Origin: Mizuhopecten yessoensis
Taxonomy: Eukaryota
Length of the DNA: 64,000 bases
Direction: 5' to 3'
Assembly: GCF_002113885.1 (NCBI RefSeq)
Contig: NW_018403859.1
Location: 29,037 to 93,036 of the forward strand
Position numbers: made by a program
Shown: positions 57,001 through 63,000 of the stretch, in pieces
Layout of the letters: every line of letters starts with the position of its first letter
Numbering within the stretch: the stretch's first letter is position 1

Positions 57001-60000
57001 TACTTTACATGATGCAATATACCACCAAACGTGACGCACATTTACATTGGTATTTAGATGTAGTCTTCAATTTAGAAACAATTCTTTTAAAGTACAGATT
57101 TAGAATTGAACTATTATTGGGATAGTTCCCATGTTTCGCATATATATGGTTATACCTTTGCCAGTGTCCGTTGCACTCCGCTTTGCCAGTAAAACTGAGT
57201 TTACAAAGTCTTAACCGATGAGATAAGTCCGCTAATATACAAAAAGAGGAAGGGTTACCGCCACGACAAAACCTGGTTGGATTTCGCTTCTATTTCTTGC
57301 ACTTCATTATAACAAATAACACACATTAATAGAAAAACAATCTGAATTATTCGACGAAGACGCTCACATTGGATATAATAACATATTATTAGAAAGGAAT
57401 TGTTGATTTGCTCAGCAATATGGTAATACATTCAAAGGGAAAGATGATTTAATTTTAGATTACGGACCAACGGACCTTATTGTTTCCGGAACGACGTCTA
57501 GCAGTGTAAACTTCCAGTGGCATCTGGGACCGAGCTGTTACGTCAGAACGGATATACTTCTCATGTACAACGTGTCTGGACAGACACGAGAAATGCATGT
57601 GCAAAAGGACTCGGAATACTACACGCTTGGAAATCTAGATCCAGAAACTGCGTACACCGCCCATTTTGTCGTTGAGTACGGGGATGAGAAAAGTGACCCC
57701 GTACATATCACATTTACTACAGGTAGATCATAACCTTCTTGTAGCACAGGGGTAACCAGAAGAAACCCTGATAAGTAAGAGTTATCATTGGGATCCGGCC
57801 GCCCTCGCGTGCGTGCCCTTGACGTAATCGCTCTGAATTTTGTTATCCAATTTTCAAGAAACCCCATATCTGTGTTCACAAACATCACCTCATGTACAAG
57901 TTGGCGTTGCGACGTTCTGGTGTTAAACGCCAAATCACTGTCACCATAACTAAAATATATGTTTCATTGTTTTACAGACTTCAATTTTTATGCAATTGTC
58001 TCGCATTTGTGGTCGAAAAGCAGGTGAATATTGCAGGCATCATTCTACAGACGCCATTTACCAGATTGTCACGAAACCACACATACTGGTTTGCAAAAAG
58101 TATCTTTTGTAAGAGATCAGGGTTCGACACTCCGGGGTTAAAGACTAATTAATTGTTACTATAACAAGATTGCTCGGGCCTTCGTTCTCCTGTACTCTCT
58201 ATTTCAACTGACGAGGTTATATGGGTGTTTATAAGCTTTTCCTATTGTAGTTACGATTTTGTTTGTATTTTTTAGGAGAACGTGAAGGCTTATCAGTTGG
58301 AATAATTGCTGCAATTTCTGTAGGTATGTTTTTTTAATCAAACCCCAAAAACATCAAAGTTTATTACATCGACAGACAGTTTAACTGCTTTAGAGTGTAT
58401 ACATGTGATATCAAATGGAAACCATAACAGTAGTGTCATATGAGCTGGGACAGTGGACTTTCCATGGATAAATGGCGACTTATCACAAAGCAAACAAGAC
58501 TGTCTAACGATTAAAATAAATGAAGAAATTGTGAATGAGTTTACGTGTATACTGTACAAAATAGGTTAAATACTCATACTTAGGGGTTCTAGAATGGCTT
58601 TTCGCTCAGCCGTGATAGTTTCATGATAAATTGTGATGTATCTAATGAAAAAATACGTGTCATTAATCTGTACATTTGAACTAATTTCATTTTGAGGGGA
58701 AATGAGTGTTCTAAGCTGACATGCGGCCAGACGAACTTGAGTAATGCCATGGTACTTTTTATTGGTTTTGTTCCCCTCAGTAATCGTGATCCTCGTTAGC
58801 CTACTTATCGCTGGTATAGTGCTCTGGAGAACGGGGAGGCTCAGCCGCTACAAGGAGTCCATCTACGGGCACATCCAACGGCGGACAATCAAGCACCGGC
58901 GGTCAAACAGCTACTCTGATTCGAAAAACGTCAATCAAGTAAAAGAACGGAAGTCATTCGCGGTACATATCATCCATGTATTTACTTTTTACTTTTTAAA
59001 AGAACGATAGTTCTGGTCCAAGAATGGTATTGATATCTATAACAATTGTCAAGTACATCACAAGATAAGTTCTTTAAAACTGATTGGTTTATAACCGTAA
59101 ATCTAATTTTGCATAGATTTATCGTCTTCCACGGGATATTATACTTTTCAGACTCACAGGTAAGTAGGACCAAATGTTCTTTCCCTTGTCCTAGCGGGCG
59201 CTGTTCCTTCTTCTTGAACAGCCATAGAAACGGCATATTCAATCTCTTTTGCATAGCCATTTAAAAGCTCTAAGAAGAAACAGGCAAACGAACCGAATAG
59301 GCCTGGCAGACCTCTACAGACAACACCACCATGAAAGAATAGTTCCATCGTGAAAAAACATTTTATTGTACATATATAATACAATGAGATAAGAGTTATA
59401 TTATCATAATTGTGTCCACACAACAGCTGCAAACATAATGAAAACATCATCCATATACAGCACATTTTTAACAACCTACCCATTTATTTCGACCAGAACC
59501 TGGCTTATTCGGATGTCGGTGACGACGATGTATACTTGTATGGTCAAATGGTGTTTAATGAGGACCAAGCGTGGGAGGTACATCACGACCAAATATCCTT
59601 AGTCGAGAAAATGAACATAGGACGGTTTGCCGACATTTTCAAAGCTTCTCAAAACTCCAAAAAGAACAATAGGAAGATCCTTGTTGCAAAGGTGCTGAAA
59701 GGTAAGCTTGACTCGTGACACCAGTATAAAATATATTGAATAAAAAACATATGTTTTAACTGGGCTATAATTCAAAGGTGAAAACACATTTCACTCAGAT
59801 GAAAGTAAAAATCCGGAATGCCGTATTCTCCACCCCATTTTATCTGATTCTTTCAATGTAACAAGGTGAAAATATCGGGGTTTTTTTTCGTTTGTGTGTT
59901 AGACATTTAAACAAATGTCGTTTAATTAAATAACATACAGTGTATGAATGAAATTGAAATCAAATGAGTCTGAGAACCACAAAATACTGTCTTTTCCTTG

Positions 60001-63000
60001 AAGAAACTACATGAAGCAGGATTTGGTATTCCGAGTAACATCCGGTAGTCATGATGCCTCAGAACACTTCAAAATGGAGCTTTGGATTTTGGAAAGGCTT
60101 TTGTAAAATTATTGATTTCGATATTAATTTGCTGATATTCCAGAGTCACATACAGAGATAGACGAAATGGTGATGACCGCCAAGATCAACTTCTTTGCGA
60201 CAAAGATTGGTTCCCATCCCAACGTTATTAAATTTGCTGGTGCCGTTCTTGACAACAAACCACGTAAGAATTCCGAAACGTCGATTTAACATTATTTGTA
60301 AAATAACGACATTCAGCAATTATTTGACATCTTGTTATAAAGTATTAACTCGAGGTTGTTTTAATTACACATTTAAACAATGTCTATGTTTTATTAAACG
60401 TTATTGGTCAAATTTGCTGTTACTAAATACATAACAAAAGCATGATCTGCTATTGTTTCATGCATGCAGGTTATTTGAACTTTAAATAATATTCCGTATA
60501 CATGTATGTAGCAAAACAATCGTATATGTATTCACAGAAGTTTTATAAGTAAACATTTTTGTCATGATTTTCACCTATTTCTGTATGACTTAAATACATT
60601 TTGTGGCGTTCATAGTTCAATTTTAATGCATCGCTCTTGTTTAGTCGGTCCTTTCATGCTGTTGGAGTTGTGTGAGGCAGGTGTGATGAGGACTTGGCTG
60701 CAAAATCAACGAACAAAGATAACCGACAGTGTCGTAGATACCTTGTATCGTATGACCTTTGACATCGCTAGGGGAATGGACTACCTTGCTTCTAAAAAGG
60801 TATTATTTAGCAATTGTTACATAACCAAAGATACTAAATGCTTTATCAATACAATTAATTTTCACTGAGCGATTTTCCTTACAATTGAGGTTGCTAAAAC
60901 GCAACACTAAATATGCAGTAAAGTATTTTTTTTAACTAATTGGCGATATGTAATATATTACCACGTATTTAACAAAGGAAAATAAGAAAATATAGATAAA
61001 GAAAAATGTGCGACACATATCTTCACGTATTTTACATTATTATGTTTTTGAATTAAAGGGTAGCCCTTACCCCTAAATGTGAATTAGTTAACGTTAGGAG
61101 TATCTTTTAACAGTCAAAGTTATCGCACCACTTCGTACGACGAAATATCGACACGCAGTATGCTTTCATTATTTTTTTGTTACTATGCGACAATCGAAAA
61201 ATGAAAACAACACAACACCTTTAATTCTAAACAAATAATTTTTTAAATCAACATTACTCTCCGGCAATATGCATCGTGACATTTTGCCCTTTCAATAAAT
61301 AAACATGTATCTTATACTACATGAGTTATTATCCTGTTTTTAGATAATTCATCGTCATCTGGCAGCCAGAAATATTCTCCTGACATCGTCACTTGAAGCA
61401 AAGGTAGCAGGATTTGGACCGACAAAGGAAACTGAGCAACAAGATGGCGACAATGGAAAGGCTAGTACAGTCGATAATAACAGAAAGATTAGCCTATAAA
61501 GACAGCTTAATGTGACTAGCGGTAACCCTTACCCTAAGTTGCCGGTATACACCATATGACTCATGAGTTGACAGTATAAGATTACCAAAAAGAAGTTTCA
61601 AACGACTCGAGAACAAAATAAAGTATAGATTTTCCCATTTGGGAATGTAATTTTCTCAAAAAAAGAATGCTTCTCGCGCAGATGATGTTATGGACCGGAC
61701 ATAGTATCCACACAAAAGTGATCCGCCATAAACAAATCATCATAGAGTTAGAAAAAACCATTGCGAGGATGAAAACACCATTTTCCAGCGTAAATGTGCA
61801 TAAAAGTATGCAAAAAACCAATGACCAATTGAATCTAAATGTTAAATTAAAGTTGTTACTACAGGGAAAGGTGGCGATCAAGTGGATGGCCCCGGAGTGT
61901 ATGACTTCCGTGAAGGACGCTACAATGCCGAGTGATGTGTGGTCCTATGGAATCGTAATGTGGGAAATATTCAGTCTGGGTAGGTAGGGTATGGTTATCA
62001 GGGGAATATCCAATGTGGTCATTAAGTGGGATATATGTATTTGATCTGTACATGTTATCAGAAAGATATATAGAAAGATAAACAGCACAGTTTACATGTG
62101 TGTGGTAAACTCTATCTATCAAATTGCTAACAATACAATTACAGTACAATTACAATGCTGATCGTTCAACGGGAAGACACTTACATAATTTTCCTATTTT
62201 AGGAGATATCTCAATCTGAAACACCGATTGGAATTAAAAGTTAATGTTTGATACCGTTCATTATATTACTATAAGAGATGTCATGCATAACATAACGTTA
62301 CATTTGATGGTGTAATATCAAACGAGCCGTGTACATTTATGAAGCGTGGGCCAATGACATACCTTGTGATGAACGTAAGAAATGTTCCAAAACGGAAACT
62401 TAATTGATAACGTAAAACACTTTAAGCCTTATCAACGTCTCATACATTCGGTATAGCCATGTTTTTTTTTAATTTATCAATTAGCAATGTGATATACAAA
62501 TGCTTAAAATTAGCTTATTTACATATAATATGTAACGTCGGACAAGCGTCTGTTTCAGGTAGTTGGATATAAACAGCAATACCGAGAAAGATTATGAAAA
62601 TATATACAATTTATCAAATACAAATTCACTAATACTCACTATCACACTCACTCTCAACCCATGCACCCTCTAATCAGAATAATACAGATCATCAGGACCA
62701 CAGTCTGCTAAAGGAAAGTGTCCCCAAAAACAATGTTCCATAAGCCAACATCTGGTCGAAGCACACCACCTGTTCTACACGAACAAATCAACCGAAACAA
62801 TACTGTACCTCAGCACAGTTAAAAAACTGCGTCTGCTATGACGTAGGTAAACACACAAAGTGTTTCCGTAGATTACCCGCGGCAGGTAGATATATTTCAC
62901 TAGCGGTAACCCTAACCCTAAGTTGCCGGTATACACCATATGACTTAACTAGTTATCGATAGTCATCACTCAGAGTTGTTCGCTCCATCCAGTCGACACA

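Follow-up and report, generated by a model that had tools for sequence, protein, structure and literature searches.

A 2026 review tabulates eight human receptor tyrosine pseudokinases from a small number of families (PMC13259870; this and the other statements that we take from the review refer to the sections of it that were available), and how a dead kinase domain signals is still open for most of them. We analyzed a 64,000-nucleotide stretch of the genome of the scallop Mizuhopecten yessoensis (NCBI RefSeq assembly GCF_002113885.1, contig NW_018403859.1, positions 29,037 to 93,036 of the forward strand), hereafter the window, which holds most of the receptor-like gene LOC110456866. The kinase-like domain of this gene has lost most of its catalytic residues, and the same replacements recur in a family of mollusc proteins that share its ectodomain.

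Among the tabulated human receptors, EphA10 comes closest to the mollusc pattern (PMC13259870). Like the mollusc proteins, it is single-pass, lacks the Asp of HRD (HRG) as well as that of DFG (GFG), and is thought to signal without catalysis (PMC13259870 and the available part of PMC7586955). The two differ in what has been spared, as EphA10 no longer has the beta3 Lys (VAVH) or the catalytic Asn (HRGLAARH) and retains GxGxxG and the alphaC Glu, whereas the mollusc family shows the reverse, with the Lys and Asn kept and the Gly-loop and alphaC Glu lost. EphA10 also has an Eph-type ectodomain in common with active paralogues, whereas the mollusc ectodomain is unrelated and we found no active paralogue sharing it. 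EphB6, HER3 and STYK1 resemble the mollusc family in the replacement of the alphaC Glu (by R, H and R, respectively), together with changes at HRD and/or DFG (PMC13259870). They differ in having other ectodomains, in being one human gene each, and in lacking the combination of H-R-R, G-F-G-P and A-K-I-N-F. HER3 signals via C-terminal tail tyrosines that are phosphorylated by a partner. The ectodomains of the described receptors comprise seven immunoglobulin (Ig) domains in PTK7, a WIF domain in RYK, Ig, Frizzled and Kringle domains in ROR, an ephrin-binding domain in EphA10 and EphB6, and receptor-L and furin domains in HER3. PTK7/CCK4, RYK and ROR are, like the mollusc family, conserved receptor pseudokinases, and they act as Wnt-pathway co-receptors; they differ in having kept the catalytic-loop Asp (HKD) (PMC13259870). 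The mollusc motif pattern was unlike all eight columns of Table 2 in the available text of PMC13259870.

The kinase-like domain of LOC110456866

The kinase-like domain is encoded at window positions 59497-61979 of the forward strand by five stop-free exons (A-E), each of which was translated separately. Together they are letter-identical to residues 893-1130 of the NCBI protein LOC110456866 (P0007, 1202 aa). The exons are as follows.

59497..59701, + strand: kinase exon A, with D-D-D-V-Y-L-Y-G, the Gly-loop NIGRFA and the beta3 Lys (translation)
60144..60263, + strand: kinase exon B, with AKINFF in helix alphaC and then HPNV (translation)
60645..60799, + strand: kinase exon C, hinge and alphaD-alphaE, without a kinase insert (PF07714 positions 77-122, E=2.4e-6)
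61344..61460, + strand: kinase exon D, with HRHLAARN, GFGP, an acidic Tyr-free activation segment and a GC donor (translation; PF07714 positions 123-156, E=5.7e-7)
61865..61979, + strand: kinase exon E, with KWMAPE and SDVWSYG/alphaF (PF07714 positions 165-199, E=5.7e-13)

An earlier note, made from the DNA alone, had proposed a receptor tyrosine pseudokinase here on the strength of NIGRFA, MTAKINFF, HRHLAARN, KVAGFGP and a Tyr-free activation segment in a domain with HPNV, KWMAPE and SDVWSYG intact, and we recovered every one of these where it had been placed. The Gly-loop N-I-G-R-F-A (59614-59631) has lost two of its three glycines. The beta3 Lys is retained in L-V-A-K (59680-59691; Lys codon 59689-59691). 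Helix alphaC reads M-T-A-K-I-N-F-F, and the Lys (codon 60182-60184) is equivalent to one that aligns with the alphaC Glu of VEGFR2 in an Argopecten relative (P0013), whose domain is 82% identical and has the same MTAKINFF. In the catalytic loop H-R-H (61350-61358) places a His (61356-61358) at the HRD Asp position, followed by the retained Asn (61371-61373), and G-F-G-P of KVAGFGP (61410-61421) stands in place of DFG. Alignments to solved kinases agreed, with EGFR and the choanoflagellate RTKC8 having Asp at both sites against His and Gly here. The activation segment is acidic and has no Tyr, and the structural motifs HPNV, KWMAPE (61880-61897) and SDVWSYG are in place.

Of the sequence features of a competent tyrosine kinase, the domain therefore has the beta3 Lys and is missing GxGxxG, the alphaC Glu, the HRD Asp and the DFG Asp; two of the three residues by whose loss pseudokinases are recognized (the VAIK Lys, HRD Asp or DFG Asp) are gone. 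The claim that all key catalytic motifs had been replaced thus holds for the Gly-loop, alphaC Glu, HRD and DFG and has to be narrowed for the beta3 Lys (VAK) and the catalytic Asn, both of which were kept. We infer from the sequence that the LOC110456866 domain does not carry out phosphotransfer.

The exons were searched one by one, unjoined. Exons C, D and E matched PF07714 at consecutive profile positions, with bit scores of 27.5, 29.6 and 49.2, all above the family cut-off of 23.1, in keeping with the alignment that the earlier note had proposed as a check. Neither exon A nor exon B alone matched a Pfam family at E<=1, and the N-lobe was recognized only within the whole of P0007, which matched PF07714 over profile positions 2-258 with 234 bits (E=2.3e-69). 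The exon D query ran three codons into the intron and recovered P0007, while a PDB search with exon C alone gave a single marginal match, PKR (E=0.0092). We also considered the pseudokinase domain of receptor guanylyl cyclases, which was ruled out by the HRxLAARN/KWMAPE signature and by PF07714, both of which point to tyrosine kinases.

A family with the same replacements

We assembled a family set from a full-library HMMER search with a Pecten paralogue (P0006) and a profile search with seven kinase-only fragments, giving 259 proteins. Of these, 135 matched the kinase domain as well as residues 151-730 of P0007, from its ectodomain; in 128 the kinase match spanned at least 200 residues, and these were aligned. 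Seven short matches were dropped, of which four read HRR, HGR or HRK with GFGP or SFS and three end before the catalytic loop. A word-index search with P0007 residues 150-730 gave at least five proteins, from scallops, among the matches listed. The residues in the 128 aligned rows were as follows.

HRD His: H in 128/128
HRD Asp position: R in 110, K in 9, H in 8, S in 1; Asp in 0/128
Catalytic-loop Asn: N in 127/128
DFG Asp position: G in 124, S in 3, gap in 1; Asp in 0/128
DFG Phe: F in 125/128
Residue after GFG: Pro in 122/128
beta3 Lys: K in 127/128
alphaC Glu position: K in 123, E in 3, of 128 rows
Gly-loop first Gly: G in 5/128
Gly-loop second (middle) Gly: G in 127/128
Gly-loop third Gly position: Ala in 121/128
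APE Glu: E in 128/128

The activation segment is acidic across the family (median 6 Asp/Glu in 18.5 residues), with a Tyr in only 4 of the 128 rows. From these counts we define the family signature as x-x-G-[RKH]-F-A, the beta3 Lys, A-K-I-N-F, H-R-R-L-A-A-R-N (H-R-H in scallops), G-F-G-P and an acidic, Tyr-free activation segment, and the counts demonstrate that it is fixed across the family tree. The window gene falls within this definition, having the shared ectodomain (P0007 151-730), xxG[RKH]FA, AKINF, HR[RKH]LAARN and GFGP. No relative sharing the ectodomain had an intact HRD or DFG, either among the 128 aligned rows or among the dropped seven, three of which end before the loop. Orthologues with both motifs intact, with neutral decay in this copy alone, had been named beforehand as a finding that would overturn the pseudokinase reading; their absence (0/128) indicates that we are not dealing with neutral decay of a single copy, and a lone decayed paralogue is ruled out by the family-wide residue counts. 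The proposed check on whether HRH and GFGP are conserved in relatives gave conservation of GFGP, and HRH was confined to eight rows, with HRR in most.

We weighed the alternative that these are atypical but active kinases, in which a remodelled site binds ATP, perhaps free of metal, and catalyses phosphotransfer at a low rate or by a non-canonical route. CASK, which has GFG and is Mg-independent, and HER3, which has weak activity, are parallels. A beta3 Lys and a catalytic Asn that hardly vary, the HRD His and DFG Phe present in 128 and 125 rows, and a confidently predicted kinase fold (below) would all suit such an enzyme, and several receptor pseudokinases retain an accessible ATP site (PMC13259870). 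Against this, the HRD Asp, which is the catalytic base, is missing from every row and a basic residue takes its place in 127 of the 128; also lost are the metal-binding Asp of DFG, the alphaC Glu that pairs with the beta3 Lys, and two glycines of the Gly-loop. No acidic residue occupies the HRD or DFG Asp position in any of the 128 rows, a relocated catalytic Asp not having been searched for. We consider activity of this kind quite unlikely.

Three other groups of sequences were met in the searches. A divergent branch (P0080, P0088, P0089 and P0129) has the same ectodomain with HRK-L-G-A-R-N and SFA/SFS replacing HRR/GFGP, and is also catalytically dead by sequence. Among 72 ectodomain homologues, 27 gave no kinase match (P0017, P0047, P0048, P0059 and 23 others); secretion, truncation and incomplete gene models are possible explanations. 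Proteins P0018, P0038, P0049, P0053 and P0166 contain about 4 to 10 tandem tyrosine-kinase-like domains, most of them degenerate (HGN, HRN and xFS variants), and represent a separate poly-pseudokinase architecture.

Taxonomic range and history

An organism name was attached to 91 of the 128 rows, and all 91 are molluscs, comprising 79 bivalve and 12 gastropod sequences. The bivalves include scallops, ark clams, oysters, pearl oysters, mussels, unionids, venerids, Mya, Dreissena and Mactra, and the gastropods Littorina, Nucella, Batillaria, Babylonia, Gigantopelta, Pomacea and Haliotis. No cephalopod and no non-mollusc was present among these named rows, absence elsewhere not having been tested. 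This range fits a family restricted to one lineage, and the suggestion that the receptor is possibly lophotrochozoan-specific is shown by our data for Mollusca only. Mya and Mercenaria each have at least nine named proteins, some of which are isoforms of one locus, and a single contig of 727,251 bases holds four paralogues from M. yessoensis. Judging from the proteins sampled, the family is large, is expanded within species, and is present in both bivalves and gastropods.

A FastTree phylogeny of the 128 family domains with 12 canonical tyrosine kinase domains placed the family apart from the canonical domains. The sequences with HRH formed a clade of eight tips (support 1.0), all seven named tips being pectinids, nested among HRR, HRK and HKR sequences of oysters and pearl oysters. 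This nesting indicates that the His is a scallop-only change from an ancestral Arg. The simple Asp-to-His replacement proposed by the earlier note is thus correct for the residue now present at the HRD site and not for its path: in the tree, the history is Asp to Arg to His, and HRR is the state of the family. The loss of catalytic residues is shown to be ancestral to the family and to be kept under strong constraint.

Constraint was gauged by protein-level identity, region by region. Comparison of the scallop protein with those from other bivalve orders and from gastropods gave identities of 43-57% for the pseudokinase domain and 29-38% for the ectodomain. Within scallops, two ectodomain types are 44-46% identical to each other and their pseudokinase domains 81-87%. 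By this measure the pseudokinase domain is more conserved than any other part of the protein. For the Argopecten domain (P0013), AlphaFold2 gave a model with a predicted local distance difference test score (pLDDT) of 88; inside the domain, scores below 50 were confined to the acidic activation segment, and both ends of the chain (residues 1-14, with the conserved Y-x-Y among them, and 293-295) were also below 50. The best PDB matches of the model were FGFR1/2 kinases, with template-modelling (TM) scores of 0.77-0.81.

Gene model and receptor topology

Residues 1-1130 of P0007 mapped onto 20 coding exons at window positions 35822-61981 by exact-word (7-mer) mapping, and all 20 are stop-free and match P0007 exactly. 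The 15 exons upstream of the kinase-like domain are as follows.

35822..35884, + strand: coding exon 1, residues 1-21, hydrophobic N-terminus, a likely signal peptide read by eye (7-mer mapping)
38839..38895, + strand: coding exon 2, residues 22-40 (mapping)
42256..42339, + strand: coding exon 3, Cys-rich (CC-x-G-Y-x-G-x-x-C), start of the EGF-like region (mapping, PF25024)
45853..45942, + strand: coding exon 4, EGF-like domain (PF07974 EGF_2, E=1.3e-4, 22.7 bits against a cut-off of 22.1)
46318..46416, + strand: coding exon 5, EGF-like domain (weak EGF matches, E=0.01-0.08)
47118..47408, + strand: coding exon 6, ectodomain, no known family (Pfam, mapping)
48139..48273, + strand: coding exon 7, ectodomain (Pfam, mapping)
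51806..52012, + strand: coding exon 8, ectodomain (Pfam, mapping)
52743..53555, + strand: coding exon 9, 271 aa, mostly beta-strand, family-specific by sequence (AlphaFold2, fold search)
53665..53781, + strand: coding exon 10, ectodomain (mapping)
55305..55478, + strand: coding exon 11, ectodomain, Cys-containing (mapping)
56230..56268, + strand: coding exon 12, short (mapping)
57461..57724, + strand: coding exon 13, fibronectin type III (FN3) domain (PF00041, E=8.2e-8, 32.8 bits against a cut-off of 25)
58275..58322, + strand: coding exon 14, start of the membrane-spanning segment (mapping; hydrophobic run read from P0007)
58780..58962, + strand: coding exon 15, remainder of the transmembrane helix and a basic juxtamembrane stretch (mapping)

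The description of the gene as intact was upheld by the stop-free exons and the match to the annotated model, up to the point where the window ends and cuts off the last 71 residues of P0007 (ETPYPG...DDYYYTT), which include the C-terminal tail. All five kinase-domain exons have an AG acceptor and four have a GT donor; the donor of exon D is GC (AAG/GCTAGT, at 61461), giving a GC-AG intron at 61461-61864. The NCBI model agrees with the A-E exon structure, this intron included. The contigs that carry several relatives of 980-1250 aa are only 3.8-5.6 kb long, too short to accommodate introns, and we infer that these are spliced transcripts. In one of them (P0014) the exon D/E junction is positioned as in the NCBI model. 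The Pecten maximus model (P0006) has about 10 additional activation-segment residues at this junction, starting with A-S-T as encoded in the window just 3' of the GC donor, suggesting that the choice of donor may vary between species or isoforms.

A decaying pseudogene or an artefact of gene prediction could give an oddly substituted kinase domain, and the GC donor and the failure of exons A and B to match Pfam alone could be taken that way. The 20 stop-free exons with an exact model match, the same substitutions fixed across bivalves and gastropods, the identity of the domain across bivalve orders and gastropods, and the confident fold prediction all argue against it, making this explanation extremely improbable.

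By Pfam, P0007 consists of N-terminal EGF-like modules, about 580 residues without a family, one FN3 domain and the kinase-like domain. The family EGF_TEN (PF25024) matched residues 50-151 with E=5.3e-8, which was under its curated cut-off. Between the FN3 and kinase-like domains we read by eye an uncharged hydrophobic run followed by W-R-T-G-R-L-S-R-Y-K, so that the protein has the topology of a receptor tyrosine kinase, with an ectodomain, one putative transmembrane helix and a cytoplasmic kinase-like domain. The best reading of LOC110456866 is a predicted single-pass receptor with a signal peptide, EGF-like modules, FN3, transmembrane helix, juxtamembrane segment, kinase-like domain and a short Tyr-rich tail.

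Exon 9 matched no Pfam family at its cut-off. Its AlphaFold2 model (pLDDT 91.2) is mostly beta-strand, and the nearest PDB folds were generic tandem Ig/FN3 beta-sandwich modules (SiiE, RbmA, NCAM and cadherin, TM <=0.38). Protein Atlas likewise gave generic Ig/FN3/Big-like leads, with recognition below the reliable range. The fold search with this exon returned no specific ligand-binding module, and with only generic tandem neighbours the ectodomain does not point to a known ligand system. A Pfam scan of P0007, P0008 and P0016 found no PTK7, ROR, RYK, ErbB3 or Eph ectodomain family, in line with the earlier note, which had set this ectodomain apart from those of the known receptor pseudokinases, judged by the Pfam families that define them. 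No Ig family was found in P0007 at E<=0.01.

Relation to named receptor families

By sequence, the nearest solved kinases belong to the FGFR/VEGFR/PDGFR-Kit group (VEGFR2, E=1.6e-46; FGFR2/3, KIT and PDGFRA, about 1e-44). Among the fold matches listed, identity to the mollusc pseudokinase domain is no higher than 30-34%. The cytoplasmic kinase CSK scores similarly (E=4.1e-44), so the affinity is not specific to that group. The mollusc family differs from the group in having no Ig Pfam match, no kinase insert, and no HRD or DFG Asp. The likeness explains the automatic database names of family members, which include FGFR2/3, Kit, Tie-1 and angiopoietin-1 receptor-like; UniRef calls the LOC110456866 protein an FGFR. 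FGFR is defined by Ig-like modules and an active kinase, and Tie/TEK by Ig, three EGF and three FN3 domains with an active kinase. Membership in FGFR or Kit was rejected on the lack of an Ig match in P0007 and the absent HRD and DFG Asp. Tie/TEK membership was rejected too; EGF-like modules and one FN3 are present, but there is no Ig match and the kinase is dead. As statements of family membership, the FGFR, Kit and Tie names are misannotations.

The gene models are already public, labelled 'uncharacterized' or misnamed. Our searches of the literature found no description of the family, supplements and most subscription journals being outside their coverage, and term look-ups in the available parts of PMC4883820, PMC5620054, PMC13259870, PMC7586955 and PMC8662651 showed no description of it there. 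These proteins apparently make up a large and undescribed family of receptor tyrosine pseudokinases, restricted to one lineage, whose active site has been rebuilt in a distinctive way. With many copies per genome in bivalves and gastropods, every member found dead, and replacement residues (H-R-R, G-F-G-P and A-K-I-N-F) that are near-invariant, the family offers a natural comparative data set on how dead kinase domains signal, one that could reveal which surfaces of the kinase fold matter once catalysis is gone. There is also a practical side, since these genes carry the labels 'uncharacterized', FGFR, Kit or Tie in the genomes of scallops, oysters, mussels and clams, which puts aquaculture expression studies at risk of misreading them as growth-factor receptors.

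Flanking tyrosines and proposed mechanism

Conserved tyrosines flank the pseudokinase domain on both sides; the denominators below are the residues present in each alignment column. The juxtamembrane motif, acidic-acidic-x-Y-x-Y-G (D-D-x-Y-x-Y-G), has Y905 in 120/127, Y907 in 109/124 and G908 in 110/124; in the window it reads D-D-D-V-Y-L-Y-G in exon A, with Tyr codons at 59533-59535 and 59539-59541. A C-terminal motif, D-[DE]-[YF]-Y-Y (YYY), has Tyr in 120/124 and 107/121. Acidic-flanked tyrosines are typical kinase substrates and adaptor docking sites. The juxtamembrane Y-x-Y lies about 11-12 residues before a conserved Trp, an arrangement that we take to resemble the Src-docking site of class III (Kit/PDGFR) receptors.

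We consider it probable that LOC110456866 and its relatives are catalytically dead receptors that signal as phosphorylated docking scaffolds for a partner kinase. In such a mechanism the fast-diverging ectodomain would bind ligand or cluster the receptor, and a separate active tyrosine kinase would phosphorylate the juxtamembrane Y-x-Y and the C-terminal Y-Y-Y. The phosphorylated sites would then recruit downstream adaptors, with the rigidly conserved pseudokinase fold serving as a docking or allosteric platform. The partner might be an active receptor kinase or a Src-family kinase, and Src-family kinases are expanded in the oyster kinome, according to the available part of PMC4883820. Human receptor pseudokinases, which act non-catalytically (PMC13259870), provide a precedent, and the mollusc family would allow a test of whether such receptors generally rely on conserved tyrosines beside the domain and on a partner kinase.

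The same receptors could instead be decoys or dominant negatives, soaking up ligand or blocking an active receptor, with a cytoplasmic domain that has no output of its own. The dead catalytic site is compatible with this, and the ectodomain homologues that gave no kinase match could be secreted or truncated decoys if they are not partial gene models. Such a decoy would need a target; none of the 128 relatives with the same ectodomain has an active kinase, and the short-match rows add no HRD or DFG, three of them ending before the loop. Moreover, conservation within the protein is highest in the cytoplasmic domain and extends to the tyrosine motifs on either side of it, which is more than a pure decoy would need. 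We regard a decoy role as unlikely.

Several points weigh against the docking-scaffold proposal. The 128 rows are related sequences (isoforms, paralogues and close species) and not independent observations. The GC donor at 61461 was accepted on the basis of the NCBI model and the matching junction in a transcript-like relative. Retention of the beta3 Lys in 127 of 128 rows, and of the catalytic Asn in as many, taken with the Lys and Arg gained in the pocket, suggests that binding of nucleotide or another anion may persist, possibly with residual atypical catalysis. Lastly, the conserved tyrosines could be structural or autoinhibitory in place of docking sites.

A broader proposal, which we find doubtful when taken as a whole, joins the rebuilt pocket to the signalling role. 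The mollusc receptors might constitute a ninth, mollusc-wide class of receptor tyrosine pseudokinase, with the alphaC Glu, HRD Asp and DFG Asp replaced, two of them by basic residues (Lys and Arg/His), around an invariant beta3 Lys and Asn. The basic pocket would bind an anion, for which metal-free nucleotide, phosphotyrosine or the receptor's own acidic activation segment, as a built-in phosphomimic, are candidates. The fold, locked in or switched to an active-like state, would act as an allosteric driver of a partner from the expanded mollusc Src family, and the tandemly duplicated, fast-diverging ectodomains would be lineage-specific recognition receptors sensing immune, gamete or settlement cues. 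In Caenorhabditis elegans, a receptor kinase/pseudokinase pair takes part in oomycete recognition and immune signalling (available part of bioRxiv 10.1101/2022.12.15.520564); this is a functional analogy from another phylum, with no sequence relationship claimed, and an immune role for the mollusc family is speculation.

Other features of the window

Within the receptor gene, a 31-bp tandem array occupies part of the intron between coding exons 2 and 3, and a run of 87 N (48782-48868) lies in another intron. A short local duplication at 55266-55755, beside coding exon 11, holds two copies of one peptide stretch in different + frames, separated by about 45 bases; both were matched in the 7-mer mapping. 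Two introns have a short element in common (about 61494-61560 and 62836-62952), with an identical peptide stretch in the minus-strand open reading frames (ORFs) at the two sites; the element is probably a small interspersed repeat.

Upstream of the receptor gene and on the opposite strand are two exons of an NXPE-family gene, 22974-23786 (-) and 25676-26431 (-), with matches to NXPE4_C (E=7.9e-55) and Neurexophilin (E=7.8e-10). Tandem arrays were found at 29037-31287, 39022-41481, 33774-34638 and 26404-26732, with units of 51 bp (x44), 31 bp (x81), 22 bp and 42 bp (x7.8), respectively. Retroelement remains are present at 1-1722 (+), where an ORF that is already open as the window begins encodes reverse transcriptase and RNase H domains, and at 17089-18602 (-), as a reverse-transcriptase fragment.

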